DNA of 64,000 nucleotides, taken from Candidatus Omnitrophota bacterium (GTDB lineage: Bacteria > Omnitrophota > Gorgyraeia > Tantalellales > Tantalellaceae). Shown here piece by piece: positions 3,512-59,575 of this stretch. Position 1 is the stretch's first letter, and the number at the start of each line of letters is the position of its first letter. A model generated the notes under the pieces. That model saw nothing but the letters and a program-made list of their open reading frames with translations. It did not search any database and was not told the origin of the DNA. The position numbers and the translations under genes are program-made. The stretch is from the NCBI GenBank assembly GCA_049643885.1, contig JBARQV010000031.1, forward strand, positions 20,949-84,948, written 5' to 3'.

Positions 3512-4003
3512 TTACCAGCGGTGCTGTTTTCTTCCCATTTTGTCCGGGCGTTTTTTGCCGTAGTGCTTTGTCTTTTCCGTGAACTTCTCGAACTGTTCTT
3601 TGGTCAGGACGGACTTGGTGTCCATGATGGACGAGACCCTTGTATCGATGAGCTCTCCCTGCAATTCCTTTATATCCGCGACTAAACCGTTCATCTTGCG
3701 CGTGTCGGAATCGTAGCGTTCGAGTTCCTTCCGGAGCTCTTCTTTCTTTTCTTTCAGAGCTTCACGGGTCTTTTGTCGTTTTTCCCTGTTCGCTTCCCTG
3801 AGGCGGGTCATTCCCTCTTTTTGCTCATCGGTAAGGCCCAGTTCATCGAGGAATTTTTCCCTTTTTTCCATCATTTTTTCTTTGTATTCGCCTTTTTCAT
3901 GATGGCGCGTTTCGGAAAACGCGGGACAAGCCGTCAGGACAAGCCCAGCGGCAATTGCCAGAACCATGATCTGTTTCAAAGTTTGTTTCTTCATCTTGAT
4001 CAC
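3512..4003 (-). CDS. Spy/CpxP-family periplasmic protein
   Basis: Signal peptide; two LTXXQ motifs (LTDEQ, LTKEQ); coiled-coil K/E-rich; ECF promoter upstream. Confidence 0.65.
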   Translation of the reverse strand: MIKMKKQTLKQIMVLAIAAGLVLTACPAFSETRHHEKGEYKEKMMEKREKFLDELGLTDEQKEGMTRLREANREKRQKTREALKEKKEELRKELERYDSDTRKMNGLVADIKELQGELIDTRVSSIMDTKSVLTKEQFEKFTEKTKHYGKKRPDKMGRKQHRW

Positions 4004-46050: not shown

Positions 46051-49000
46051 TTACGCTGCTATGAGTAGGCGCCTGAGCGTGGCGTAGGATTTGATAAGCC
46101 TGCTCTTGTCGTATCGCTTGGCGTTGGGCAGGAGTTTGAACACGAGAGTCTTTGCGTCTTCCTTATTAATGGACTCTATGTTCAACTCATCAAGGTTGAG
46201 TGTTTTGTTGCGTATCGTGAGCCTGTTCTTGATACCCGTTTCACCGAGGACGGATTCGCAGTAATCTGCCAGTGTTATCACTACCACCTCAGCGATCGGA
46301 AAATAAGCGTCAGGATGGAATTCTTTATGGTCTATGTACGAAGAATGCACCTGTGATTCGATGTTTCTTAAGTCTTTCCTCGACTCCGTTGACGCAAATA
46401 CAAACACTTCTGTATTTTTATCCGCGATGTGTTCAGCAAGCTCAGTAGGCATGTTTTTGGAGTCGGCCGGAACTATCACGAGATTGTTCAGTATAGCCGC
46501 GTTGGCTTCGTCCTCTTTAAGCTCCCGCAACGCTTCCATGAGGCGTCCCAGAGGATCTTCGTTTGAACCTGCGGCGACTTTCGTGTCAAACGCAAGGACG
46601 ATCTTTTTGTTGAATGTCAGCGAAAGCGCTGCCTCCCTGAGACACTTGGCGAGTTTCTCGGGGATCGTAAGGTCACGCAGGGTTTCATCCGACGTGCTTT
46701 CATCCGGAGGCAGATATCCACCGCCGAAGACATACCATTTATCACCTTTGAAATAGAGCATGTTAGCTCTTGCTAATTCTAATGCTTCTTTGAAATCTAT
46801 GATTCTTAAAACTCCTTTGGGGTCACCAGTAATATCTATAACCTCAAGAGTAGATGCTAACCCTAAATCGCGAATAGAAATAATTTTTTCTACAGCCCTT
46901 TCCCCTCTGATCACGTCTTCGTCCGAATCAAGACCAAGATCTCTAAATTTATCAATGGCCTCCTGAGGTTTCGCTATTTTAATTTTCACTGACAATGAAT
47001 CCGGGGAAAAGCTCGCGGACATAACGTTATCGTCGTTCATGGTCTCCATTTTCTTCTCTCCAAGTCCTTCGTGTTCCGTCAATGCCCTGCATGTATTAGT
47101 GGACAGGTCCCAGAATTTTACATACCCTTCCTTGTCTGCTGAAATGAACTGGTTATCGCCGTATCTTGTTATTGAAGAGACCTTGGAATCATGTCCTTTG
47201 AATAACGAAACCTCTTTAGCATCGAGGTCCCAAACTCTTATTGTCCCGTCTTTGTGGCCAGTTACAATTTTCTTGTCGGTCAGGACCGCCAGAGAAGAAA
47301 CCGATTTGAGCGTTTCGCCCGTAAGGGCCCTGCCAATAAACTTTGTATTTCTATATATCCCCACGGTACCCATGTCCTGGTGGTCATCGTTTTTTCGGCT
47401 GGTGGCTACCAGGTAACTGACCTCTCTTCTGGTTTTGCTGCCACTCTCGCGCCTCATGACGAAGTTCCCATCCGGCAATAATGCCTCTAAAGTGAGAAAA
47501 ACATTACTCCTGGATAATGCAGGAGGTGGATATGCCAAGATGCGTACCTCTCCGGATGCCGTATCTAAAATACCGATATTTCTTTCCTTTTGTATCAACT
47601 GATTAAAACCGATCTTTTCTTCGGAAAGCGGTGTAATAGAACGTATTTTTTCACTTCTATCTTTTGTGGTGGATAAATAGGTTTTAATTGTTTTCGCGGT
47701 AAAATTCATTATCTCGATCTTTGCTCTGGCATAGCTTGTGATAATATTCCCTGAAGGTGACACTTCGAGCGATTTCACTTCTCCGGGACCCTTCATAAGT
47801 ATGTAAACCTTGTTCTTGGTGATATTCCATAATCTTATTGCCCCGTCCCTATGCCCCGTTACGATCCTTTTGTCGCGAGTCTCCAGGGTATCGAGTATTG
47901 CAGTTTTTGTGATAGGACTTGCATACCCGCTGAAAGTGACTTCTATTTCCGTTTCTGTGTTTTTTGTGAATAACATTTGCGCGCTATTGTCCTCCACGGG
48001 AGGGGTCCAACGTTCTTTTGTCTCGAATTTTGAAAGAAGGTCATCCGTATAAAGAAGCCATTCACCATCACTTCTCTGGTTTACCACCGGCCCCGTTATC
48101 TTAGATTCTGCGTCAGGGTCAAGTTTAAAAGGAATGGATTTTGATTCTTGTTTAACCGGCTCCGGTTTGTCGGGTCCGGCAGAGGGTATGTCCGCCGCGC
48201 CGCGCAATGCTGCCTCGGTAGCCGTCATAATGCGGTATATGCCGTTTTCAGCTATTCTTGAGTCCCCCGCAATAATGGTTGCTTCTGAAAGTTCGTTACC
48301 GGACCACCTGAGTTTAAGGCCGGGAGACACGCGGCAGATAATATTCACCTTAAATACCGGTTCGCGCATGCTTTCCGGCCAGAGTATTTCTGAAATAGTG
48401 GATATAATATAATCTTCTGAATCCTGATCTCTTGTGAAGATAACGTCGCCTACCTGGAGAAAATCTAATCTTTCTCTAAAGAGGATTTTGTACACGCATT
48501 CGGCATTTTTGCGGATAAACTTGGAGAGTTGCACCATATCCTGGGGAATGCCTACCACAGCGGTCATGTCACCGGTAGCGATGAAACGTTTTAGATCCGT
48601 AAAGGCCTGGCTCCTTGTTTCATCAAACTGTTCTCTATCCATGATACGGTAGACGCGGCCGGATCTTAATTGATCTTCTGGGATAGAAGATTCCTTTTCA
48701 GTTCCTGGAATCGGTACGAATTCTCTGGGTCCCCGCGCGAAGAGAACTTTATAACCCAGTTTCCCGTCTTCCAGGAGTTTTGTTACAAGGAAGACATATT
48801 CCAATAGATTAGTATTAATGAAATAAATAATGTCACCCTCTTTAAGGTCGTCTGTTTTATCTATTGATGCCGCGGGGTCGACAATACACTCAGCGTTTGC
48901 TTTGATCAGCCGGTTGGCGTCAAAATTTTCGATCGGCATATCAGGCATGTTCGCGATATCGCCGGTAGCGAGAACGCGCAGGAACAGCCGGTAATCACCC

Positions 49001-52000
49001 GTTGAAGTTATCTCCCAGCGTTTTATTCTGCCCTTATTATCAAGGGTTACAACATCTCCGTCAGGCGTCAAATCCACATATTTATGAATGAGAGCGTTTT
49101 CTTCTTTTATTGTCGTGATAAGCTTTCCGTTCAGATCCCAGAGCCTTGCACAGCTATCGCCGTCGGTGGTGCAGATAATGGTATTATTTAATACCCCCGC
49201 CGAATAACAACCTCCTATAGTGATGAATTCACCCTCTAGTGCGCCTTCTATCGGTTCTCCGTCAGGGGTCCACAAAAAAGCATGAGCTTCGAATTTATCT
49301 TCATCAGCGCGAAGCCTCCCTAGAATATTTCCGTTTGGAAGAATTATGGGGGCTTCAATAAATTCGCGCCAATTGTAGCCAAACCAGTTCTCGATCTTTA
49401 AAGTTGCAATAGGGTCACCCTTGGAGGTCCAGATCCTTACTCTGTTATCACTATCAAAGGTAAGGACATTGCCGTTAGGGAGGTTTGCCATGCCTTTTGC
49501 TCCCGCCATTACTAGTTCGATTTCCATAGGTGATAATGAGACTGAAAGATTGGTTGCGTATTTATTGCTACTGTTCCACGCTCGTCCTGATGCAAATATC
49601 CACCCGATTGAAGTGGATATCACATATTTCCATACAGCATCTTTGGAAGAAATTCCCCCTTCTAATCTTGGTGATGTTTGCTCGCCGTCTTCGCTGAAAA
49701 CCGTTTGTTTTCCGTCTTTATCGTAAGTGATATATCTTCCGTCATCAAGACGCGCCGCACCGTAATAGGCCATCTCGGTATTAAGTTTTCCCGGACTCAA
49801 GTCTAATCTTAGTTTACCGTATTGGGTCCATACTCTCGCGTGTTCGTCACTATCGGATGTGAGGATCTCGCCATCAGGAAAGACTGTCGCGCCGTAGGCT
49901 CCCACTATAACTTTATCGACTTTTAAAGCGTCTAAGAGATTGCCGCCCTGGTCCCAGAGCCTTGCACTGTCGTTGTCGATGGTAAGGATATTGCCGTCAG
50001 GGAGGACTTCTATGCCCCGTTCTGCTACTGTGATGTTTCCGGACCACAATATGGCCCACCAGCTTTGCTTTTCCACCCTTTCGGTAGAGAACGCGTCTTT
50101 TATAATAACCCCGTTCTTATCCCATAGCCTGACCTTGCCTTCACTGTCCCGGGTGAGTATGTTACCGCTTGGGAGGATCTCCAGAAACGTAATTTCTCCC
50201 GTATCCTCGAATTTTCCCTTTTTCCCCGGGCCTATTTGGCCTTTCCTTGTGTATAGAGTCGGCAAAGTTCTAATATCCAAAGTTGTCGTATCCATAACAG
50301 GCTTCGGAACCACGCAGGTAAATTTGCCGGCCGGTGTATAGAAGACGATCCTGTTTTCACTGTCGCGAATTATCAAATTGCCGTTGGGGTGGACCTTAAA
50401 TGGTATGTCTCCAACGAGCATCCTGCCTGAAAATTTAAAATCAAAATCCACCACTTTTTGAGCCGTAGAAAGCGGCCCAGTCAGTTTAGGCGTTTCTTCC
50501 GACGCGGAAACTGGAGGTTCGGGTTTTTTGAATTTCAGGACGGAAATATGTCCTATCTCTGCCGCGTTGGCAACGTAGACAGTGTCATCTTTATCTATGG
50601 CCAGGCCTCGCGGTTGTTTGAATTTTCCTTGCAACTGATCTATGATCCCGTTGTCGCCAAAAGCGGGGTTCCGGCTTTTTCCATCCGGATTCAGGACTAT
50701 CATTGCTTCGGCATTACTTATGATCACGTAGATATTCCCTTTACTATCTATGCCTATGCCTTGTTTTACCACTTCCAACAGCTTTCTTTCCCCCAAGTCT
50801 TCAAAATCAAGGGGTATTGTCCCGTCATTTCCAAAAGCCGTATTAAGGCTTCCATCCGGCTTCAGAACGGATATTGTGCCGTTGCCGTCGTTGAGCACAA
50901 AGATATTGCCTTTATTATCTAATGCTATGCCGACAGGTTTACTGAATTTACCGGTTTCCTTTGGTATTGTTCCTGATGACGCGAACCCTGTTTTCAGGGT
51001 CAGATCGGGGTTAAGAACGGTCAGCGATTCGTTCCTCGCATCGACAACCAGGAAATTTCCTTCCTTGTCCCTGACCATGTCAACGGGCGTACTAAGGCCC
51101 AATGGTTCATAATCTACCAGTCCTTTATTGCCGAAATAGCGGTTTAGCTTCTTCCCATCAGGATTTAGGACGGAAAAGTTTCTTCTCCGGTTAACGCCAA
51201 TGATATTACCGGCATCATCTATAACTGCGCATATCAGCCGTTCGATCTTGCCCGATATGATCCCTTTCTTACCGAAATTTCGGTTTAGAGCTTTCTCGTC
51301 CGAATTAACAACCGACATCCAATCGCCTTCGTTACTTACGAAAATATTTCCTTGTTTGTCGACAGCTACATTGAATGGCATTACAAAGTTGCCCGTTTCC
51401 CGCGGGATCACGCTTACTTCCAGCTCGCACTTGACTGTAGTCGGAGATCCGGGTTCTGCCGGCGATTTGACGGGAGTTTTTTCTTCTCCGGGGCGTGGTT
51501 CGATCAAGGCCTCTTCGCCGTATGAATTTTTCAAAGAGTCGCCGGTTTCGCCCGGAACGCCGGGGGCTTCTGCGACGGATACGGCGGACTTTTCCACCGG
51601 GACCTCCACCCAGAACCAGGTCTTGCCTTCTTCCACATCGAAGTTTGTTTCTATGCCGAGTGAATCAAGCTCAAGTTTAGCTTTAAGGAATCCCTGGAGA
51701 GCGCGGGGTGCTGTTTTTTCGATCTCTTCCGCGTTCTCGTATTTTGTCGCGAAAATATGCCGCTGGAGGAATTTGCTGAACCCGGAATTGTAACCGATAG
51801 CTACACATAAACCCCCGTCACTCTGGCCCGCAGCTAATCCCACGAGTTTTCCGGCCTCTTGTGCTTCCTTAAGACGGTCCGGAAGGCTTTCAGGGAGAGA
51901 TTCCCAGTAATCTTTTATCACCATCCTGTCCTTTTCGTAAAGAAAAGACTCAAAATTGGCTCTTTTTGTGATCCTTACAGTTTCTTTTATCCAGCCATCC

Positions 52001-55000
52001 AGCGCTTTCTTTTTCTCGTCCGGGGCTTTGGCGACTATTTCCTTTCGTCCCGCGTTTGCCTCTTTATCTTTGCTGCGGAAATCGGGACTGGTCAATACGA
52101 AATTATCGGTAAGCTGTGAGGGATCAATGGCTTTCCCTGCGCCTATCGCGACTTCTTTTCTGAAACCGAATATCTCTTCCAGGTCGCCTATCGTGATCGC
52201 TTCGGCAGGTCTTTCCTTAAAGCGCTCGGCAATACCCGTTATTGCGGCCCTGTCCCGCTCGCCCAGTTCTTCGACTTCTTGCGCTTCTTCCCGCTTTTGA
52301 TGTTCAAAAACGATCTTTCCTTTTTCAAATTTCGCCGTTATCGTGTCGCCCCTTCGTATAGCGGCTATATTTTGTGTCATGTAAGTTGAAAGCGGGTTCT
52401 CAAAATGCCTTTTTACTGCGTCTGCCATGGGACGCGCGCCGTATTCAGCTATGTATCCTTTTTCGGCAAGCATCCTGTTGATGCTGGCTTTTTCCTCATC
52501 ATTCCGGCCGATAACGAGGTTTATTCCCTGCTTATCCCTGAAGCGTTCCATCGTTTCCGACAAGAAGAGCTGGACTATCTTTGTGAGCGAATCCAGGGGA
52601 AGCGGGTTAAATACCAGCGTGCCATCGAGGCGGTTCAGAAATTCCGGTCTGAAGAACCTTTTCACGGCATTGCTGACCGAAACGTTCATTTTTTCTATGA
52701 ACGCTTTTATCTTTTCCGGGTCACCGCTTTTGACGGCTTCTTCCATTTCTGGATATAACGATACGGGATGAGGCCTGCCGCCCTCTATCACGATGTCCTT
52801 CATTCCCAGGTTCGTGGTAAGTATGATGATCGATTCATTGAACTTCACGGTGTCGCCCCGGTTTGAGGTAAGCCTTCCGTCTTCCATCACCTGGAGAAGT
52901 ATATTCATCACATCAGCGGCCGCTTTGTCTATTTCGTCGAAAACGATAACCGTCTTCGGATATTTTTTCATATGTTCAAAAAGGTAACCCTCGCCTTCAT
53001 CATATCCCACGAATCCCGGGGGAGCGCCTATAAGCCGTGAAAGGTCTTCCCTGGTCTTGTATTCGCTCATGTCGATCCGGAGCATTTTCATGCCCAGTGT
53101 ATCGGCAAGCGTTTGAGCGGTCTGTGTCTTGCCCACCCCGGTAGGCCCGGCGAAAACAAATGCCCCAAGAGGCGCTTTCGGTGACTTCAGCCCCGCCTTG
53201 GCGACCCTTACTACACTGCTTACGGTTGAAAGCGAGTCATCCTGGCCGACTACGCGGTTCTTGAGGTTGTCCTCAAGAGCGAGGAAGTTCGCCCTTTCGT
53301 CCCGCTTTAATGAATCCGTATCGATCTCTACCTGGCCTCTCCTTGCTTCAAGCTCGCTTATAAATTCAAGCGCCTCATCCTGCCCGATGGCGGGTGACGA
53401 TTTTTCTCCCATTCTTTCCTTGGAAGCGTTGACGCGCCGGACAAGCGTCTTTATTTCATCGATCCCTAAAAGGTCTTCTTCTGAAACTTCTTCGTTCGCG
53501 GCGGCGTCCTGGAGTTCTTCTTTGAGCTGTTCCAGGCTGTCCCTGAGTTCCACCGCGACGCGCGATTCTTTCTGCCGCCTTTCGAGGGCGAGCCCGCTGA
53601 ACCACCTGTTAAGCACCTCTACCGCAGAATATGACGAGAAATACTGTTCCCACAGCCGGACCGCCACGCGCATGGCTTCAAAACTTATCTGGATACCGGG
53701 CTTGCCGTTACTTGTCTTTTTCTCTATATAATCCTTTATAAAGAGATGCAGGTTTTCCATTACGGCGCTTGCTTCCTGCGGGAGCATGTCGACCAGCGTA
53801 AAATGCTGGTCAAAGGAATCGTCTTCGGTGATCGACTGGCGCGACGATGTCATGACAAAAGAGACCGTCTTGAGTCCCCTGAACATCCTCAGGAAATACC
53901 CGAGCATGAACGGGTTTACCCTTACCTTTTCAAGCTCGTCCTTGACGTCGTCAAAATCGATCACAATGATGGTCTTGAGGCCTTTTTTCTCGCCGTCTTT
54001 TTCGATAAGCTCGGCCAGTTCTCTCATCTTTATCTCGAAATAACCCACCATGGAGAAGTAACTTTTAAGGGACTCCAGTTTCAAGCGAAGGATACGGGTA
54101 TCAGTAAATCCTGAGATCTCCCCGCGCGACGCGCGCGCGACAAAACTGTCGACCACCATCCTCTTGGCCAGGATAGAATCGCTCAGGACCAAAGGATAAT
54201 TCCTTCTTTTCTGGTTAAGGACGGATGAAAGGCGGCCGATAGTCTCGAACGGCGGGTAAAGGTCTTCTAAAACGCCTTCGGCCGCGTCAAGGCTCAGGTT
54301 CTCAAACGCCCCGTTCAGTTCCTTGCGGAGCTTCTCCTGTTCCGCTATCGACTGCTCTTGCATTTCGTCCTGCATTTTCCTGGCGCTTTCTTCATTGCCG
54401 CTTTTTCTGGTCGCCAGTATCGTCCTTTTCCTTACCAGGAGTTCAAGCTCCGTCCGTTCTTTTATCATCCTTTCCGATATTGCCTGCTTCTGCGAATCGC
54501 TGCTTGTCCTGCGCAGCTGGTTGTCCATTATCTTCTGGTTGGCCTGCAGCTCCTGTATCCTTACTTCGATCTTTTTGAGTTCAGTGTCGATATTTTCGGG
54601 ACTTAAGTCCATTTCCGGCAGGCTTTCGGGGTCGGCGATGTCTATTTCGTATTTTTTACGCATATCTTCAAGCAGTGTCTGCCGGATCTCCATTGCCCTC
54701 GAGTCTTCTTTATCTGGGACCGAGAATGATTTAGCCATGACCTGAATTGATATATTTTTGATGTCGAGCAGTTCATATAATTTCTCGGCAGGCGTTTCTT
54801 TAGTCCCTTCTTTCTTTAAACGGTCTATGGCCTTCCTGTGCCGTGCCTGTTCTGTTTCCTGTTTTTCTTTTTTGGTCTTAAATATGGCTTTTCCGTCTGA
54901 AACGTCAGCTTCTATTGTTTCTCCTTTATTTATAGAGTCGGCAAGGATAAGGTCAGCCAGCGGGGCCAGCACTATCCTTTTTAAAGACCTTTCCAGGGGC

Positions 55001-58000
55001 CTGGCGCCGTTCGTGACATCGTATCCTTCCTCCAGGACCTTTTCGCGAAGAGTTTGACTCAGGCGAAGTTCCCCGTAACCTTCCGCGGAAAGGAGTTTAT
55101 TGACGTTCTTGAGCTTTATATCCAGTATTTTTTCCAGGTCTTCCTTTGAAAGAGGATTAAAATTGATTATGTTCGGCAGGCCTATGCGGCCGATCAATTC
55201 CGGCCGCAAGCCGGCTTTTACGGCTGCAATGACTTCATCTCTTACTTTCCGCCTTAGGGCTTCCAGTTCTTCCAGCGCCTCTTCTCCTCCCCGGTCCTTG
55301 AGCATGGCGATCTTGACATACTTTTCGTTGAGCGCTCTTGTTCTCTCCGGGTCGGCCGCATACCCTTCGCTGAAACCTATATTCGAAGTCATTATTATGA
55401 TAGTGTTCCTGAAGTTGGCCATTCTTCCCTTCCCGTCGCGAAGCTCGCCGTTATTAAGGACCTGCAGGAGCAGGTCGAGCGTCTTGGGATGGGCTTTTTC
55501 CACCTCATCCAGAAGGACGACGCTGTATGGCCTTTTCAGGACGTGATTGGTAAGTTGCCCGCCTTCTTCGTACCCGACGTATCCCGGGGGCGAGCCGATC
55601 AGTTTATATGAATCGCTCTGGTTCATGTATTCACTCATGTCGATGCGCACCATGGCGTCTTCCGAGCCGAACATGTGCCGGGCAAGGGAACGCGCGAATT
55701 CCGTTTTTCCCACACCGGTAGGCCCGACAAGGAGGAATGCCCCGATAGGCAGGTTCCCGCTCGCGCCGATCACTCTTCTGCGCGAGAATGCCTGGTAGCT
55801 GTCATTGATGGCTTTGTCCTGGCCGATAAGCATGCCCTGGAGTTTAGGGACATAATCCTTGAGAAGCTCGTCTTCGGAAGCAAGTATCTCGTAGAGCGGG
55901 ACGCCGCTGTCTTCGGATATCTGTTTAGCTATTGTCTCTATAGTTATTTCCCATTTTTTGCTTTTGGTGATGTCTTCTATGAATTGCCGGTTCTCTTCCA
56001 GCTCCTTCTCGACCGCTTCCTGCTCGCTCAAAAGCCTGTCCAATGAAAGTTCCAGGAATTTTTGCTGCTCAGCGTCTTTCTCGTCCGCGCCGCACTTTAT
56101 CAGTTCTTTTGATGTCCTCAGTATCCTTTCCAGTATATCCGCTCTTTTTGCTTCAAGCCTTGATGCGGTCGTGAACGCGCGCGTGATTATCCTGTCGATG
56201 ACTTCCTGAAGTTTGTTTACCGAAAGCCCCTGTGGATAATGCTTCTGGCTCAGTCTGAGGGCTTCATCGAGGATCTTTCTTGGAACCTGGACTTTTACGC
56301 CTTCGGGGATGATGTCTTTATACGCGGAATTTATCCTGCGGGTGAAACTCTTCGCGATCCTCAACAGGTCATATTCCGGGGGCGCCCGCATGTCCAGGAC
56401 AGAAAACTTCGGTTCAAGGCGCTTGTCTTTCGCGAGGACAGTATCATAAAGCTGCGGATTGCCCAGGATGACCACGCTTATATTTTCGTTTTCGATTGCT
56501 TCCTTCAGCTGGAAATACAAGCTGGCCATCATGCCCGATTTCATTTTCTGGACGTCATAAAAATCCTGGAAGTTCAGGACAAGGACTGATCTTTCGTTCT
56601 TGCGCGCGGCCTTTAACGCGCTTGTTAGCTTGGCCAGTTCCATTTCAAGCTGGCCGGGTATAGCGAGATTCTCGGCGAATCGGGCGGTATTTATCTCGAA
56701 AAATTTCGCTTTTCTCAAGTTATCAAGCCCTGTTGAAGTCTCCCCTTTGCGCACTACTATTCCTTCTATCAATCCCTGGCATGCGATAGGGTCGCCTACG
56801 ATCATGACGTTGTTCATCTCCGGGTCCGTGATCTGGTCGTTCAGAAAAGCCGCGTAATTCGCCACGTAATACGTGTCGTCTATCTTTCCGTCTTCAACCA
56901 GTTCATCCAGGTCGTTGGTGTATTGTTTGATGTAATCGGGATTCGCTTGACCCTGGCCTTGAGGCCCGGCAGGAACACTCTCGCCTAATTCGAGCAGGAT
57001 CAATATAGGCGCAGCTATTATCCCCGCTAAGAACATCCATTCAAGAGGCATGATCCCGGCTGTTGTCGCGTTCACTCCCAGGTCAAGGGTCATCCCGAAG
57101 CCATGCTTAAGTGTAAAATAAGCCCCGATGCCGATCCACCATAACATATGATGGTGGTGATGGCCGCTCAGATGCTGTTTTAAGTGCGCCAGTTTTTGCG
57201 CGAGAATGGATCCTGTGGTTTGTTGGGCAGCCCCGTCGGTTCCGTTAGGTTTATCGTCACTTTCGCCGGGCGTGATCTCCTTGCCGGCTTTTTCGTATAT
57301 CCTTTCAAGGGCTCCCCTGCCCCTGTCGCTTCTTAAAACCTTGCCTATCGCGGCCGGGTTATCCTGGACCAGGACTTTTTGCTGGATAGCCTGGATCACC
57401 GCGCCCATTACTTCCTCAAAGTTCTTGTCTTTTTTATCGGACCTTAAATAACGGACAACCGTCTTTATCGTTACTTCCCTTATATCGTGCTTCTCCTCAT
57501 CGCTTACCTCGGTTTCCAGGTCATCTTCGCCCTCTTCTTCAAGGGCGTCGGCAAGTTCGTCCAGTTCTTCGCCCATCTCTTCGACGGCTTTCTCGACCTC
57601 TTCGACGATCCTGTCGGCATCTTCTTCGTTTTCTTCCTTTTCTTTTTCCCGTCTCAATGCTTCCAGATAGTACATCCTGTCGCATATGCTTAATATTGAT
57701 GGGACCAGAACGGCAAGAAGAATGACCACTATCGGCAGGCCGCCTATCATTGACGCGCCGGCCGTGTGGCAACCGGTCATGAATGAGCCGCCTATAACGG
57801 CCAGGATAAGCCCAAGAAGGGTCTTTCCGGGGCCGGATTTCTTTTCTTTAGCGGGTATTTTCTGGTCTATAAAGATCCTTAGGGCTTTGCCCAATAATCC
57901 CTTACTCATCCCCTTTCCGGGAAAATGGTCCGGAAAGAACTCCTGCTGGGCAAGGATAGCGTGGTAATGGCTAAGAGTCGGGCAGATAAGTTCATGCAGA

Positions 58001-58842
58001 AGATACTCGTCGATCAGATGCGGGCGGCACATATTTTCAAGTTCCGCGATAAAGTCAGTGGCAAGGAAGATCTCCTTATCTCCGGGGTAATGACGTCCCA
58101 GGAAGAAATCATCTTTTCCTTCTACGATAGATTTTAACCCATAGATCGTGTATCCACCGCTTTCTATTTTTTCTATTAATTCTTCAAGCGCCCTTCTGTG
58201 TTCAGGAGCCAGGCTGAATAGGCTGACGCCTTGAGTGAATTTTTCAAGCAGGCTTACCAGTCGTTCTTTATACTCGTCGGTTATGTCTTCTTTCGGGGCT
58301 TGTTCGAACTTTTTAGCGGACAATTCGCCCTGATGGATAAACCCGTCGCCCGTTTTCCCTTCTTCTGCTGTTTTTTCATCTATTTCGGGCTTGCTTTCGG
58401 GTTCTGCGGGTTCAGCCGCGGCCGGCTTTTCGCCTTTCTTTCTTATCGCGGTATCAAAATCGTTTTCAGGGTCTATCACGACTTCGAATTCAATAAAATC
58501 TTTTTTGCCCGGGATGATCCATTTTCCGGTTTCGTCCTGCCTCTTTTCATTGCTGTCAAAGAATAAATGCACTTTTTCACCGTTCACTTCAGGAAAAAGG
58601 TGTTCAGTGATCTCTTCAAAGGGTTTATGGAGGCCGCGCAAGTAAACCTGCACGGCAACCTGGACCGAAAAAAGATTTGCGGGTTCCCAAAAGTTGCTGG
58701 CAGCACTAAGATACATATTTGCCGCGCCTCTCTGGAATATGTCAGGATTCGCCCATGTAACGTTGTTAACAGTGAACAGGCACACTATCACCACGGCTAT
58801 TATCTTTATCCATGCCCTATTCCTGTTTTTCGCGTTTTCCAT
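46051..58842 (-). CDS. giant membrane-anchored multidomain protein (~4263 aa): 2x ClpB-like AAA+ modules (degenerate NBD1 + intact NBD2), NHL beta-propeller, multiple WD40-like repeats, unknown C-terminal domain
   Basis: Start ATG 58842 with SD AAGGTGA (the longest ORF runs to 59061, but that extension passes through the leader hairpins and repeats). Signal-anchor AWIKIIAVVIVCLFTV plus two TM hairpins. Degenerate NBD1 NNVMIVGDPIACQGL. Walker A GPTGVGKT at nt ~55702-55725 and ~53130-53153; Walker B VVLLDEVEKAHP and VIVFDEIDKAA; GARPLER and GARPMAD sensor-2. NHL repeats at nt ~50450-51450. WD40-like repeats (e.g. HRDGAIRLWN, HKDGTIRVWD) at nt ~47100-50400. Confidence 0.85.
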   Translation of the reverse strand: MENAKNRNRAWIKIIAVVIVCLFTVNNVTWANPDIFQRGAANMYLSAASNFWEPANLFSVQVAVQVYLRGLHKPFEEITEHLFPEVNGEKVHLFFDSNEKRQDETGKWIIPGKKDFIEFEVVIDPENDFDTAIRKKGEKPAAAEPAEPESKPEIDEKTAEEGKTGDGFIHQGELSAKKFEQAPKEDITDEYKERLVSLLEKFTQGVSLFSLAPEHRRALEELIEKIESGGYTIYGLKSIVEGKDDFFLGRHYPGDKEIFLATDFIAELENMCRPHLIDEYLLHELICPTLSHYHAILAQQEFFPDHFPGKGMSKGLLGKALRIFIDQKIPAKEKKSGPGKTLLGLILAVIGGSFMTGCHTAGASMIGGLPIVVILLAVLVPSILSICDRMYYLEALRREKEKEENEEDADRIVEEVEKAVEEMGEELDELADALEEEGEDDLETEVSDEEKHDIREVTIKTVVRYLRSDKKDKNFEEVMGAVIQAIQQKVLVQDNPAAIGKVLRSDRGRGALERIYEKAGKEITPGESDDKPNGTDGAAQQTTGSILAQKLAHLKQHLSGHHHHHMLWWIGIGAYFTLKHGFGMTLDLGVNATTAGIMPLEWMFLAGIIAAPILILLELGESVPAGPQGQGQANPDYIKQYTNDLDELVEDGKIDDTYYVANYAAFLNDQITDPEMNNVMIVGDPIACQGLIEGIVVRKGETSTGLDNLRKAKFFEINTARFAENLAIPGQLEMELAKLTSALKAARKNERSVLVLNFQDFYDVQKMKSGMMASLYFQLKEAIENENISVVILGNPQLYDTVLAKDKRLEPKFSVLDMRAPPEYDLLRIAKSFTRRINSAYKDIIPEGVKVQVPRKILDEALRLSQKHYPQGLSVNKLQEVIDRIITRAFTTASRLEAKRADILERILRTSKELIKCGADEKDAEQQKFLELSLDRLLSEQEAVEKELEENRQFIEDITKSKKWEITIETIAKQISEDSGVPLYEILASEDELLKDYVPKLQGMLIGQDKAINDSYQAFSRRRVIGASGNLPIGAFLLVGPTGVGKTEFARSLARHMFGSEDAMVRIDMSEYMNQSDSYKLIGSPPGYVGYEEGGQLTNHVLKRPYSVVLLDEVEKAHPKTLDLLLQVLNNGELRDGKGRMANFRNTIIIMTSNIGFSEGYAADPERTRALNEKYVKIAMLKDRGGEEALEELEALRRKVRDEVIAAVKAGLRPELIGRIGLPNIINFNPLSKEDLEKILDIKLKNVNKLLSAEGYGELRLSQTLREKVLEEGYDVTNGARPLERSLKRIVLAPLADLILADSINKGETIEADVSDGKAIFKTKKEKQETEQARHRKAIDRLKKEGTKETPAEKLYELLDIKNISIQVMAKSFSVPDKEDSRAMEIRQTLLEDMRKKYEIDIADPESLPEMDLSPENIDTELKKIEVRIQELQANQKIMDNQLRRTSSDSQKQAISERMIKERTELELLVRKRTILATRKSGNEESARKMQDEMQEQSIAEQEKLRKELNGAFENLSLDAAEGVLEDLYPPFETIGRLSSVLNQKRRNYPLVLSDSILAKRMVVDSFVARASRGEISGFTDTRILRLKLESLKSYFSMVGYFEIKMRELAELIEKDGEKKGLKTIIVIDFDDVKDELEKVRVNPFMLGYFLRMFRGLKTVSFVMTSSRQSITEDDSFDQHFTLVDMLPQEASAVMENLHLFIKDYIEKKTSNGKPGIQISFEAMRVAVRLWEQYFSSYSAVEVLNRWFSGLALERRQKESRVAVELRDSLEQLKEELQDAAANEEVSEEDLLGIDEIKTLVRRVNASKERMGEKSSPAIGQDEALEFISELEARRGQVEIDTDSLKRDERANFLALEDNLKNRVVGQDDSLSTVSSVVRVAKAGLKSPKAPLGAFVFAGPTGVGKTQTAQTLADTLGMKMLRIDMSEYKTREDLSRLIGAPPGFVGYDEGEGYLFEHMKKYPKTVIVFDEIDKAAADVMNILLQVMEDGRLTSNRGDTVKFNESIIILTTNLGMKDIVIEGGRPHPVSLYPEMEEAVKSGDPEKIKAFIEKMNVSVSNAVKRFFRPEFLNRLDGTLVFNPLPLDSLTKIVQLFLSETMERFRDKQGINLVIGRNDEEKASINRMLAEKGYIAEYGARPMADAVKRHFENPLSTYMTQNIAAIRRGDTITAKFEKGKIVFEHQKREEAQEVEELGERDRAAITGIAERFKERPAEAITIGDLEEIFGFRKEVAIGAGKAIDPSQLTDNFVLTSPDFRSKDKEANAGRKEIVAKAPDEKKKALDGWIKETVRITKRANFESFLYEKDRMVIKDYWESLPESLPDRLKEAQEAGKLVGLAAGQSDGGLCVAIGYNSGFSKFLQRHIFATKYENAEEIEKTAPRALQGFLKAKLELDSLGIETNFDVEEGKTWFWVEVPVEKSAVSVAEAPGVPGETGDSLKNSYGEEALIEPRPGEEKTPVKSPAEPGSPTTVKCELEVSVIPRETGNFVMPFNVAVDKQGNIFVSNEGDWMSVVNSDEKALNRNFGKKGIISGKIERLICAVIDDAGNIIGVNRRRNFSVLNPDGKKLNRYFGNKGLVDYEPLGLSTPVDMVRDKEGNFLVVDARNESLTVLNPDLTLKTGFASSGTIPKETGKFSKPVGIALDNKGNIFVLNDGNGTISVLKPDGSLNTAFGNDGTIPLDFEDLGERKLLEVVKQGIGIDSKGNIYVIISNAEAMIVLNPDGKSRNPAFGDNGIIDQLQGKFKQPRGLAIDKDDTVYVANAAEIGHISVLKFKKPEPPVSASEETPKLTGPLSTAQKVVDFDFKFSGRMLVGDIPFKVHPNGNLIIRDSENRIVFYTPAGKFTCVVPKPVMDTTTLDIRTLPTLYTRKGQIGPGKKGKFEDTGEITFLEILPSGNILTRDSEGKVRLWDKNGVIIKDAFSTERVEKQSWWAILWSGNITVAERGIEVLPDGNILTIDNDSARLWDQGGNLLDALKVDKVIVGAYGATVFPDGEILTSDSDEHARVWTQYGKLRLDLSPGKLNTEMAYYGAARLDDGRYITYDKDGKQTVFSEDGEQTSPRLEGGISSKDAVWKYVISTSIGWIFASGRAWNSSNKYATNLSVSLSPMEIELVMAGAKGMANLPNGNVLTFDSDNRVRIWTSKGDPIATLKIENWFGYNWREFIEAPIILPNGNILGRLRADEDKFEAHAFLWTPDGEPIEGALEGEFITIGGCYSAGVLNNTIICTTDGDSCARLWDLNGKLITTIKEENALIHKYVDLTPDGDVVTLDNKGRIKRWEITSTGDYRLFLRVLATGDIANMPDMPIENFDANRLIKANAECIVDPAASIDKTDDLKEGDIIYFINTNLLEYVFLVTKLLEDGKLGYKVLFARGPREFVPIPGTEKESSIPEDQLRSGRVYRIMDREQFDETRSQAFTDLKRFIATGDMTAVVGIPQDMVQLSKFIRKNAECVYKILFRERLDFLQVGDVIFTRDQDSEDYIISTISEILWPESMREPVFKVNIICRVSPGLKLRWSGNELSEATIIAGDSRIAENGIYRIMTATEAALRGAADIPSAGPDKPEPVKQESKSIPFKLDPDAESKITGPVVNQRSDGEWLLYTDDLLSKFETKERWTPPVEDNSAQMLFTKNTETEIEVTFSGYASPITKTAILDTLETRDKRIVTGHRDGAIRLWNITKNKVYILMKGPGEVKSLEVSPSGNIITSYARAKIEIMNFTAKTIKTYLSTTKDRSEKIRSITPLSEEKIGFNQLIQKERNIGILDTASGEVRILAYPPPALSRSNVFLTLEALLPDGNFVMRRESGSKTRREVSYLVATSRKNDDHQDMGTVGIYRNTKFIGRALTGETLKSVSSLAVLTDKKIVTGHKDGTIRVWDLDAKEVSLFKGHDSKVSSITRYGDNQFISADKEGYVKFWDLSTNTCRALTEHEGLGEKKMETMNDDNVMSASFSPDSLSVKIKIAKPQEAIDKFRDLGLDSDEDVIRGERAVEKIISIRDLGLASTLEVIDITGDPKGVLRIIDFKEALELARANMLYFKGDKWYVFGGGYLPPDESTSDETLRDLTIPEKLAKCLREAALSLTFNKKIVLAFDTKVAAGSNEDPLGRLMEALRELKEDEANAAILNNLVIVPADSKNMPTELAEHIADKNTEVFVFASTESRKDLRNIESQVHSSYIDHKEFHPDAYFPIAEVVVITLADYCESVLGETGIKNRLTIRNKTLNLDELNIESINKEDAKTLVFKLLPNAKRYDKSRLIKSYATLRRLLIAA

Positions 58843-58857
58843 ATTGTTGTCACCTTT

Positions 58858-58883
58858 TAGCTCGATAAATCGAGCAACTACAT
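58858..58883. promoter_or_regulatory. palindromic hairpin motif copy 1 (GCTCGA-TAAA-TCGAGCAACTAC) in the giant-gene leader
   Basis: Part of a 29 nt direct repeat ttttagctcgataaatcgagcaactacat that occurs twice, 47 nt apart, directly upstream of the RBS. Confidence 0.6.
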
Positions 58884-58902
58884 TTGTTGTATCGGGTCGT
58901 TT

Positions 58903-58930
58903 TTTAGCTCGATAAATCGAGCAACTACAT
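58903..58930. promoter_or_regulatory. palindromic hairpin motif copy 2
   Basis: Identical 29 nt repeat. Confidence 0.6.
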
Positions 58931-58932
58931 CC

Positions 58933-59002
58933 CACGAACGACGAACTACGACCGACTACCGACGATCGACGAACCACGATCGACGAAATACGACCGACGA
59001 TT
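58933..59002. repeat. 10x tandem heptanucleotide repeat (ACGANCG)
   Basis: acgaacg acgaact acgaccg actaccg acgatcg acgaacc acgatcg acgaaat acgaccg acgattc; perfect 7 nt periodicity over 70 nt in the giant-gene leader. Confidence 0.8.
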
Positions 59003-59003
59003 C

Positions 59004-59059
59004 CGGTCTGGGGTGGTATTAACCAGCGCAGGAGGTTAATACCACCTTTATACCAGACC
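59004..59059. other. leader hairpin (imperfect 22 bp inverted repeat) with AGGAGG in the loop
   Basis: ccggtctggggtggtattaacc ... ggttaataccacctttataccagacc. Confidence 0.5.
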
Positions 59060-59063
59060 ATGT

Positions 59064-59136: not shown

Positions 59137-59178
59137 AAAAAAAAGCCAGGCTGACCTTCTTTAGGTAGCCTGGCTTTC
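59137..59178 (-). terminator. intrinsic terminator on the minus strand (A8 - agccaggct...agcctggct)
   Basis: 9 bp GC-rich stem followed by T8 on the minus strand; would terminate a minus-strand transcript starting near 59580. Confidence 0.6.
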
Positions 59179-59499
59179 TAGAAAACAATTTCATCTAGAC
59201 CCTGCGCTTTGCGCCCCTACGTCACCATAGGTTTGCCCCGTTAGAGATTTATCCCGTTAGAGTTTATTTTCTAATGGGATGTTCTCCCTAACGTGGCTCG
59301 CCCCATCATCTCTAACGGGGTTTGCCTTTATCTAGAATTGTATATTATTCTACCACAAATTAAAGTTAGGTCAAGAGAAAGTAAGTTAGCTATTTTATTC
59401 TTAACGGGATGTAAGTTATTTATTCATGTGAGTTAGGGAGGTGTAATTGCCGGATGCACAATACACGTACGAGTTTCTATTTGTGGAACGAAGCATTAA

Positions 59500-59575
59500 C
59501 GGGATATGGGGGTGTTTCGTACGGGAGGATCCACACCAGGCGGAGGGGCCCGGTAGAAACACCCCCATATCCCGT
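59500..59575. repeat. hairpin B carrying conserved 40 nt core copy B (59518-59556) between 19 bp arms
   Basis: cgggatatgggggtgtttcg [core] gaaacacccccatatcccg; the core reverse-complement matches 31359-31399. Confidence 0.6.

Follow-up and report, generated by a model that had tools for sequence, protein, structure and literature searches.

Few bacterial machines have been studied as thoroughly as the Hsp100/Clp unfoldases, whose known members are soluble, single-module proteins of ~750-950 amino acids (aa). Human CLPB/Skd3 is a ClpP-free Hsp100 motor of the second nucleotide-binding domain (NBD2) type that carries ankyrin repeats, and FtsH is an AAA+ unfoldase of the inner membrane whose transmembrane (TM) segments flank an extracytoplasmic loop and whose motor is cytoplasmic. 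Pex1/Pex6 combine an inactive D1 ring with an active D2 ring that has threading pore loops, alternate as subunits and are recruited to the membrane (PMC9265785). In the present work, we describe a gene from a Candidatus Omnitrophota bacterium (GCA_049643885.1, contig JBARQV010000031.1, positions 20,949 to 84,948), located in a stretch of 64,000 nucleotides (nt) that was analysed as a whole and is referred to below as the window. This gene encodes a giant protein in which two Hsp100-derived modules, each with a degenerate NBD1 and an NBD2 of intact motifs, stand in tandem, and the same core recurs in a family of giant proteins from Omnitrophota.

The two Clp/Hsp100-derived modules and the domain that follows them

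The coding sequence (CDS) of the giant gene is one uninterrupted open reading frame (ORF), in which residue i lies at window position 58842-3(i-1). No internal stops are present in its translation, and because 4,263 codons are open a chance origin of the frame is ruled out. In the ORF listing the frame is counted from the first ATG, as 46051..59061 (4,336 aa), but the sequence makes the start at 58842 (MENAKNRNR...) the more credible one. A Shine-Dalgarno (SD) motif, AAGGTG, is located 7 nt 5' of it, and the same start is used in the NCBI annotation of a 99.5% identical contig, L001 (protein P0001). This sister contig is also without 47 nt inside the 73-codon upstream extension, a deletion that would shift the frame of the extension, which accordingly reads as leader RNA and not as protein. 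The initial annotation, made from the letters of the window, had described a single 12.8-kb ORF of ~4263 aa starting at 58842, and this description is borne out. The CDS and the features on which the main argument depends are as follows.

46051..58842 (-), whole CDS, 4,263 aa plus stop codon; evidence: ORF, SD motif AAGGTG, NCBI start on L001, 47-nt indel upstream
55843..56925 (-), module 1 pseudo-NBD1 and short ClpC-like middle region, aa 640-1000; evidence: Clp alignments
54853..55842 (-), module 1 NBD2 (AAA_2) and D2-small, aa 1001-1330, with GPTGVGKT, LLDEVEKA, GYVGY, TSN, RPELIGR and GARP; evidence: Pfam, alignment
54343..54852 (-), charged, helix-rich inter-module linker, aa 1331-1500, family-conserved; evidence: family comparison
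53263..54342 (-), module 2 pseudo-NBD1, aa 1501-1860, with SDSILAKRM and Walker B DF; evidence: Clp alignments
52303..53262 (-), module 2 NBD2 (AAA_2) and D2-small, aa 1861-2180, with GPTGVGKT, VFDEIDKA, GFVGY, TTN, RPEFLNR and GARP; evidence: Pfam, alignment
51568..52290 (-), family-conserved 240-aa domain of predicted GHKL (RsbW/SpoIIAB/SiaB-like) fold, aa 2185-2425; evidence: fold comparison

Both modules are recognised by the Pfam families AAA_2 and ClpB_D2-small, module 1 at aa ~1032-1311 (E 1.7e-52 and 5.9e-17, respectively) and module 2 at aa ~1891-2168 (E 2.2e-47 and 8.3e-11). Neither NBD1 has a Pfam match, AAA and AAA_lid_9 being absent. ClpC structures align with module 1 (aa 640-1330) through its NBD1, short middle region and NBD2 (E 6e-80), and the NCBIfam profiles for ClpB, ClpA, ClpG and ClpK span both NBDs of both modules, at a quarter of their equivalog cut-offs. 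The scores for the two modules remain below these cut-offs (322.6/310.9 bits against 1,232 for ClpB and 269/279 against 993 for ClpA), as does that for ClpV (256 against 885), and the modules are only 26% identical to each other. In the PADLOC search for known anti-phage defence systems the AAA_2 part alone is matched (DolB, PDC-M37B and generic AAA), and the propellers and flanks match nothing.

The motifs of the two modules were compared with those of four ordinary Clp proteins (ClpC and ClpB) in one alignment. In both NBD1s the Lys/Thr of Walker A, the pore-loop Tyr and the Arg fingers are missing, and Walker B reads DF for DE, without its Glu; their Walker A motif is replaced by GDPIACQG in module 1 (aligned as GDP-IACQG) and by SDSILAKRM in module 2; this replacement of the NBD1 motifs holds across the family too. 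Both NBD2s retain GPTGVGKT, the hhhhDE Walker B motif, the sensor-1 Asn, the RPE..R Arg finger, the GARP sensor-2 and a pore loop of the form G[YF]VG. In this alignment neither module has the ClpP-docking [ILV]-G-[FL] loop, the GVGF of ClpC being replaced by unrelated insertions. No Pfam match to the Clp_N domain (Clp_R, PF02861) was found, and the ClpC matches to module 1 in the protein search all carry Clp_N. An M-domain insertion of ~70 columns in the ClpB-type references (P0063, P0088) is missing from both modules, as it is from the ClpC-type references; in ClpB/Hsp104 disaggregases the M-domain is a long coiled coil to which DnaK/Hsp70 docks.

On the basis of these motifs, the NBD1s are predicted to have lost nucleotide binding and catalysis, and the NBD2s keep every catalytic and pore-loop motif. 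The modules are hence best described, as far as their sequences indicate, as Hsp100-derived and ClpP-independent, with a scaffold D1 and a motor D2, and not as ClpB, ClpC or ClpA proper. The two ClpB-like modules with degenerate NBD1 and intact NBD2 recognised in the initial annotation are thereby confirmed by Pfam and by the ClpC/ClpB alignment, and all four of the Pfam families expected of the translated ORF (viz. AAA_2, ClpB_D2-small, NHL, and WD40) were recovered.

Module 2 is followed by a 240-aa domain conserved in the family, for which AlphaFold2, given a nine-sequence family alignment, yields a confident model with a pLDDT of 83 and a pTM of 0.74. As modelled, this domain is a GHKL (Bergerat) fold of the anti-sigma serine-kinase type. 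The fold is visible by fold comparison only, since no sequence match to a GHKL domain was found either in Pfam at E up to 1 (no HATPase_c) or in a PDB profile search. When the GHKL boxes (viz. N, G1 [DxGxG], and G2 [GxxGxG]) were placed by eye on the family alignment, a candidate N-box Asn was present in most members and the G1 Asp and the G2 glycines were not conserved. The domain is thus a probable pseudo-kinase or partner-binding module.

The closest described systems resemble the giant protein in parts. With ClpC, ClpB, ClpG and ClpK it shares the alignment from NBD1 to D2-small and the NBD2 motifs; its middle region is short, as in ClpC, and it is without the ClpP loop, as are ClpB and ClpG. 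It differs from the class I Clp/Hsp100 proteins by its missing Clp_N, its dead NBD1s, the fusion of two modules, the membrane anchor, the appended GHKL domain and propellers, and scores far under the equivalog cut-offs. Pex1/Pex6 are similar in their inactive D1 and active D2, their two diverged paralogues and their membrane association, although as a functional analogue only, the hexamer and the alternation being putative for the giant protein; they belong to the classic AAA/NSF-Cdc48 clade, are eukaryotic, and are separate polypeptides recruited by Pex15/PEX26. Human CLPB/Skd3 matches module 1 (E 1.7e-41) but has a single NBD, has its ankyrin repeats N-terminal to the motor, resides in the mitochondrial intermembrane space and is ~700 aa long. 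FtsH is comparable in its membrane tether, and some members of the family described below carry a metalloprotease too (Peptidase_M50 in P0124), but FtsH contains a single, classic-clade AAA module with an M41 protease at the C-terminus, whereas no protease domain is recognisable by Pfam in the giant protein. The GHKL kinases RsbW, SpoIIAB and SiaB differ from aa 2185-2425 in that there is no match at the sequence level, the G1 Asp and G2 lid are not conserved and the domain is fused behind an AAA+ D2-small. The Omnitrophota giants described so far (archaeovorin/dockerin, multi-enzyme and tandem-repeat types) share with the giant protein the phylum, an N-terminal membrane anchor and a mosaic build; it is far shorter than those of 10,000+ aa, and its conserved part is an ATPase core rather than a beta-helix, a dockerin or a carbohydrate-active enzyme.

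Papers on the giant genes of Omnitrophota (10.1101/2023.11.21.568195; 10.64898/2026.06.07.730766) do not mention Clp, AAA_2 or ClpB modules, and in the literature searched, including full text, nothing was found on Clp-like or riboswitch-controlled giants in this phylum. The view that such a fusion has no precedent therefore holds for this literature. It does not hold for the databases, in which the same two-module core is present in Omnitrophota giants, some of them with NHL or WD40, and FtsH, CLPB/Skd3 and Pex1/Pex6 are functional analogues. Relative to the literature searched, the parts and the principle are known, and what is new is the tandem pair of dead D1 and live D2, the membrane anchor, the GHKL pseudo-kinase and the exchangeable adaptors.

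A family of giant proteins in Omnitrophota

An exhaustive HMMER search with aa 388-1010 has identified 19 cluster representatives at E < 1e-10, which include proteins of 7,819, 5,570, 5,016, 4,896, 4,718, 4,189, 3,304, and 2,881 aa. Every named member of this family is from Candidatus Omnitrophota, under the labels 'AAA family ATPase, partial' or 'ClpA', and the family is thus present in public databases under generic names only. The members share a collinear core of ~2,050 aa, corresponding to aa ~370-2420 of the giant protein, with 29-51% identity (BLASTP). The parts of this core follow one another in an order kept in at least eight independent giant relatives, one of which is from a single-cell genome: the CDRMYY motif just behind a membrane segment, the acidic coil, the cluster of His residues, hydrophobic segments (one or two), module 1, the charged linker, module 2, and the 240-aa domain. 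Each module matches its own counterpart in the other members (1 with 1, 2 with 2) at ~45-50% identity, against 24-27% between modules, and hence the modules were duplicated before the family arose. P0139 apart, all full-length members carry exactly two GPTGVGKT motifs; in P0139 the motif of module 1 is AGTGVGKT, which remains a Walker A motif.

A scan of 185,579 species-representative genomes with an 11-sequence alignment found four loci, three of them in Omnitrophota, including one single-cell genome. The fourth (L008, CAZOWS010000305.1) lies on a 6.7-kb contig in a bin labelled 'uncultured Actinomycetota bacterium', a placement that on so short a contig may stem from misbinning instead of a genuine presence beyond Omnitrophota. 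The family is thus restricted almost entirely to this phylum. A profile scan of genome and metagenome contigs with a two-sequence alignment returned no loci. Word-indexed searches returned fragments only, viz. P0001 (the same gene, in GCA_049645405.1), P0002 (1,051 aa, 52-59% identity), and P0122 (83-87% identity), the last of which bridges module 2 and the GHKL domain. When the N-terminal 650 aa or a chimera of middle, tandem and C-terminal parts was used as the query in the word-index search, only the near-identical fragments P0001 and P0122 were found. No contig on record encodes P0002. P0002 aside, the top matches listed for module 1 are ordinary ClpC and ClpB proteins of ~30-40% identity.

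Outside the core, the flanks vary among members at both the N- and the C-terminal side. P0124 has an N-terminal Peptidase_M50 domain and NHL near its C-terminus, P0125 has GNAT and HEAT, and P0137 has a seven-repeat WD40 region. The names given by NCBI include 'Fic family protein' within the P0139 cluster and 'trehalose-6-phosphate synthase' for P0135, and P0123 has a very long N-terminal extension; these diverse names and extensions indicate that the core sits in very different mosaics. Mosaic giant proteins are commonplace in Omnitrophota. In P0124 (L004 480-1169), and also in P0126, Peptidase_M50 (a site-2 protease) stands directly upstream of the coil and ATPase core. These M50-bearing members are a fusion of AAA+ and intramembrane protease that merits separate study.

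The sister contig L001, from the metagenome-assembled genome (MAG) GCA_049645405.1, is collinear with the giant gene along 5.9 kb, in which 28 substitutions but no indels are found. Within aa 640-1947, four synonymous codon changes and a single, conservative replacement distinguish the two sequences, and by this count of one non-synonymous against four synonymous changes the ATPase part is under purifying selection. Elsewhere, the replacements cluster at aa 121-146 (58405-58481), a low-complexity linker rich in Pro, Glu, Ala and Lys, and at aa 572-593 (57064-57129), the loop between the last two hydrophobic segments.

Accessory domains, membrane segments and leader

The features C-terminal to the core, given here in the order of the protein, consist of three propeller or propeller-like regions and two orphan parts.

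50473..51408 (-), six NHL repeats forming one beta-propeller, aa 2479-2790; evidence: Pfam, motif scan
48973..50445 (-), about nine LPDGNILT-D-RLW repeats, propeller-like, family uncertain, aa 2800-3290; evidence: weak Pfam scores, motif scan
48163..48972 (-), two tandem copies of an orphan ~130-aa domain, aa 3291-3560, placed after the second propeller region and before the WD40 propeller; evidence: the halves are alike (E 2e-06)
46993..48012 (-), WD40 propeller, aa 3611-3950; evidence: Pfam, motif scan
46054..46992 (-), orphan C-terminal domain, aa 3951-4263, with an alternating alpha/beta prediction; no match

The NHL region (E 9.4e-17; 60.6 bits against a Pfam gathering threshold of 20) has six repeat motifs at aa 2489-2770 in the motif scan and shares 37% identity with its counterpart in P0124. 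The WD40 propeller is matched at aa ~3620-3950 (E 7.3e-15; 55.2 bits against a gathering threshold of 27 for aa 3400-4263), with canonical WD repeats at aa 3640-3920. Between these, about nine repeats of the type 'LPDGNILT..D...RLW' at aa 2826-3280 have weak NHL/WD40 scores that lie below gathering (18 bits). The six NHL repeats and the overall order of domains had been read correctly from the translation. A dozen or so WD40-like repeats had also been reported; the regions recovered are a WD40 propeller and about nine further repeats of uncertain family. A GHKL-fold domain, a duplicated ~130-aa domain and a stop codon in the sister MAG had been overlooked.

No relatives of the tandem ~130-aa domain were found in a protein database search. 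The C-terminal ~310 aa, which had been described as without a recognisable motif, indeed have no match in Pfam, NCBIfam, PADLOC or the homologue search, and AlphaFold2 gives this domain a pLDDT of 48 from the single sequence. By eye it had been likened to the C-termini of P0124, P0132, P0136, and P0137, a likeness for which hmmsearch and hhalign gave nothing.

In the N-terminal part of the protein, hydrophobicity identifies strong segments at aa 10-28, 340-356, 366-386, and 600-620 and a weak one at aa 566-584, and no hydrophobic segment in the remainder of the protein beyond aa 620.

58759..58815 (-), signal-anchor-like hydrophobic segment, aa 10-28, after the K/R-rich MENAKNRNR; evidence: hydrophobicity
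57838..58758 (-), orphan N-terminal domain, aa 29-335, which contains LLHELICPTLSHYH; no Pfam family match
57685..57825 (-), two adjacent strong hydrophobic segments (hairpin candidate), aa 340-386, then the family motif CDRMYY; evidence: hydrophobicity
57148..57681 (-), conserved acidic helical coil, aa 388-565, net charge -20, ending in the His cluster GHHHHH, where the family core begins; evidence: family comparison
56983..57147 (-), weak and strong hydrophobic segments, aa 566-620, the final membrane passage ahead of the ATPases; evidence: hydrophobicity

A signal anchor followed by two TM hairpins had been proposed for this region; the hydrophobic segments of the signal anchor and of the first candidate hairpin are strong, and the second hairpin is less certain because aa 566-584 are weak. 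The N-terminal domain (aa 29-335) is possibly extracytoplasmic. Its sole relative is the 99% identical P0001, and it has no significant match to the members of the giant family. A zincin-like 'HE..' motif in aa 215-320 had been likened by eye to the HExxH regions of relatives, but the best E values of 0.1-3 are not significant, and for this reason no metalloprotease domain is claimed for the giant protein.

Upstream of the start codon, the leader contains a riboswitch for cyclic di-GMP (c-di-GMP) and a series of repeats.

59347..59374 (-), promoter-like TTGACC-16-TG-TAGAAT, ~100 nt upstream of the aptamer; consensus match only
59161..59247 (-), c-di-GMP-I aptamer (RF01051), full-length, ~320 nt upstream of the ATG; evidence: 53.6 bits against a gathering threshold of 35, E 1e-9
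59137..59179 (-), intrinsic terminator hairpin and U8, its 5' arm being the 3' strand of the aptamer; evidence: dG -25.4 kcal/mol, z -5.3
58855..59001 (-), leader repeats, with heptamer (TCGTCGN-like) repeats at 58913-59001 and a 29-nt hairpin unit present twice at a spacing of 47 nt

The aptamer is the only Rfam match in the window and is identical in L001. Its last 19 nt are shared with the 5' arm of the terminator (the expression platform), so that the folds of aptamer and terminator are mutually exclusive. Such mutual exclusion suggests that c-di-GMP permits read-through, and the riboswitch is thus probably an ON switch. Several long hairpins are found between the terminator and the start codon; the second copy of the 29-nt hairpin unit bears the SD motif, and L001 has one unit fewer. 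Upstream of the aptamer, at 59290-59330 (-), GGCAAACCCCGUUAGAGAUGAUGGGGCGAGCC resembles the first helix of the c-di-GMP-I aptamer with no Rfam call and may be the remnant of a tandem aptamer. The sequence CCCGTTAG recurs several times (repeat D3, inverted repeat I3). A 27-nt inverted repeat (59499-59575; 89% complementary, 23-nt spacer) is located in the interval that separates the giant gene's promoter from the divergently transcribed GT87 gene.

Proposed function and alternative explanations

The explanation that we favour, with roughly even confidence, is that the giant protein is an Hsp100-type unfoldase or remodeller that is induced by c-di-GMP, tethered to the inner membrane and independent of ClpP, acts on the cytoplasmic side and recruits substrates or partners through its propellers and GHKL domain. 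In this mechanism, the dead NBD1s would serve as scaffold or entry rings and the NBD2s would thread the substrate. The two non-redundant modules may alternate in one ring, as a Pex1/Pex6-like trimer of covalent dimers, or may make two rings. Selection or docking of substrates or partners would fall to the C-terminal propellers and the GHKL-like domain. The membrane segments would keep the machine at the inner membrane, and aa 29-335, the acidic coil or both may be extracytoplasmic. Binding of c-di-GMP would block the terminator and thereby turn the gene on in the high-c-di-GMP (attached or sessile) state.

The cytoplasmic placement follows from the motors. Because these need ATP, the ~3,600 residues C-terminal to the final membrane segment must, on the predicted segments, be cytoplasmic, and because there is no hydrophobic segment past aa 620, the propellers and the GHKL domain would share the compartment of the motors. 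No more than aa 29-335, and possibly also the acidic coil (aa 388-565), would lie beyond the cytoplasmic membrane. With an internal N-terminus and the four strong segments crossing the membrane, aa 29-335 and the coil would form extracytoplasmic loops and the protein beyond ~aa 620 would be cytoplasmic; should the paired segments instead form hairpins, the coil would be cytoplasmic too.

A number of observations weigh against this explanation. The signals on topology from hydrophobicity, flanking charges and the family are mixed: were all five hydrophobic segments to span, with the N-terminus inside, the ATPases would be outside, and the relatives conflict on the side of the coil (P0124 has M50 before the coil, P0128 has no TM segment before it and P0125 has a single TM segment after the signal-anchor). 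Ring assembly and ATP-driven threading are predictions from conserved motifs, and the GHKL domain has degenerate ATP-binding motifs. Three more distant relatives (L002-L004) have no such riboswitch upstream, and control by c-di-GMP is hence lineage-specific. Omnitrophota fuse unrelated domains very freely (10.64898/2026.06.07.730766), so that the propellers may not cooperate with the motors. Lastly, codon 488, within the acidic coil, is CAA in the window (57381) and TAA in L001 (3753). This stop splits the sister gene into a 487-aa membrane protein and a remainder, for which the next gene call starts at Met566 with no Shine-Dalgarno motif before it. The intact fusion may therefore be dispensable, and the stop itself may be a real polymorphism, a strain inactivation or an error.

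A more ambitious form of the favoured explanation, which we consider speculative and unlikely as it stands, makes the core a new bacterial class of AAA+ machine. Three covalent dimers would assemble into an alternating double ring like that of Pex1/Pex6, anchored in the inner membrane through the element of coil, His cluster and TM segments. The machine would extract or unfold specific proteins recruited by the GHKL pseudo-kinase and exchangeable adaptors (here NHL and WD40), and in this lineage would be turned on by c-di-GMP at the attachment of an ultra-small cell to a surface or host.

Among the other explanations, one of comparably low probability is a regulatory scaffold at the membrane. 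The Hsp100 modules would then be nucleotide switches or platforms, similar to those of plant SMAX1/D53, the GHKL domain an RsbW-like binder in partner switching, and the propellers docking sites, the whole forming a c-di-GMP-linked membrane hub. That half of the AAA+ domains are already pseudo-enzymes, that a faint NBD_SMAX1 Pfam match is present on the sister gene along with a weak PDB match to SMAX1, and that the gene is placed behind a riboswitch all agree with such a hub. The NBD2s, however, keep the pore-loop aromatic, the Arg finger and both sensors, which threading needs and mere nucleotide binding does not. There are also no sigma factor, STAS or PP2C partner genes near the giant gene, and the ATP motifs of the GHKL domain are degenerate.

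It is somewhat less probable again that the protein is a 'Rosetta-stone' fusion of little integration, in which the Clp core is a self-contained membrane chaperone or quality-control machine and the propellers and orphan domains are passengers, possibly freed by proteolysis. The flanks of the family differ wholly, from the M50 protease and GNAT/HEAT to the members named for trehalose-6-phosphate synthase and Fic, multi-enzyme long proteins are found in the phylum (10.64898/2026.06.07.730766), and the sister MAG tolerates a split at codon 488. Against these, propellers recur after the core (NHL in P0124, WD40 in P0137, both here), which hints at a preferred partnership, and there is no evidence of processing sites.

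The initial annotation had proposed a surface-exposed remodelling or attack machine of the kind suggested for predatory Omnitrophota, and this proposal is not borne out. In it the protein would be surface-exposed or secreted, with its ATPases and propellers outside, acting on prey or host. Several features lend themselves to such an interpretation. The N-terminus resembles a signal anchor, and five spanning segments would put the C-terminus outside; Omnitrophota giants have been proposed as extracellular effectors (10.1101/2023.11.21.568195), and ~39% of the long proteins of the phylum are predicted to carry a signal peptide together with TM helices (10.64898/2026.06.07.730766). NHL and WD40 propellers are common in surface proteins, and control by c-di-GMP fits a function linked to attachment. 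We nevertheless regard it as improbable. Two NBD2s with fully intact catalytic motifs, conserved across the family, would be senseless without ATP, and the placement of the motors in the cytoplasm gives no support to a machine at the surface. The fifth hydrophobic segment (aa 566-584) is weak, and the relatives P0002 and P0168 carry the same core without any signal sequence. The flanking genes encode a GT87 glycosyltransferase, a GH3-family ligase, an aminotransferase, an Asp-Al_Ex permease and a P-type ATPase, and no secretion, pilus or glycoside hydrolase genes are located beside the giant gene. Pfam finds no beta-helix, dockerin or carbohydrate-degrading content in the protein, nor the adhesion or cell-wall-degrading domains that, together with secretion or pilus neighbours, are traits of the predatory giants (West-Roberts et al.).

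A decaying gene or assembly chimera whose ORF is not expressed as one protein is very improbable: the TAA at codon 488 of the 99.5% identical contig, the missing SD motif before the ATG at codon 566 and a C-terminal 1,840 aa without confirmation from another assembly speak for it, but the 12.8-kb frame is open in the window, L001 is collinear over 5.9 kb without an indel, the independent giant relatives (at least eight, one from a single-cell genome) have the same core order, P0122 joins module 2 to the GHKL domain at 83-87% identity, and synonymous changes exceed non-synonymous ones in the ATPase region.

The giant gene thus belongs to a conserved lineage, confined almost to one phylum, in which two Hsp100 modules stand in tandem, their NBD1s apparently retired to structure, and are tied to the membrane and to exchangeable adaptors. 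If the modules alternate in one ring, the protein would be a bacterial, covalently linked counterpart of Pex1/Pex6 and a natural system for studying the division of work between dead and live AAA+ domains. The riboswitch provides a testable handle on when an uncultured member of the Omnitrophota makes a very long protein, and the default view of the long proteins of this phylum as extracellular weapons is tempered by this family.

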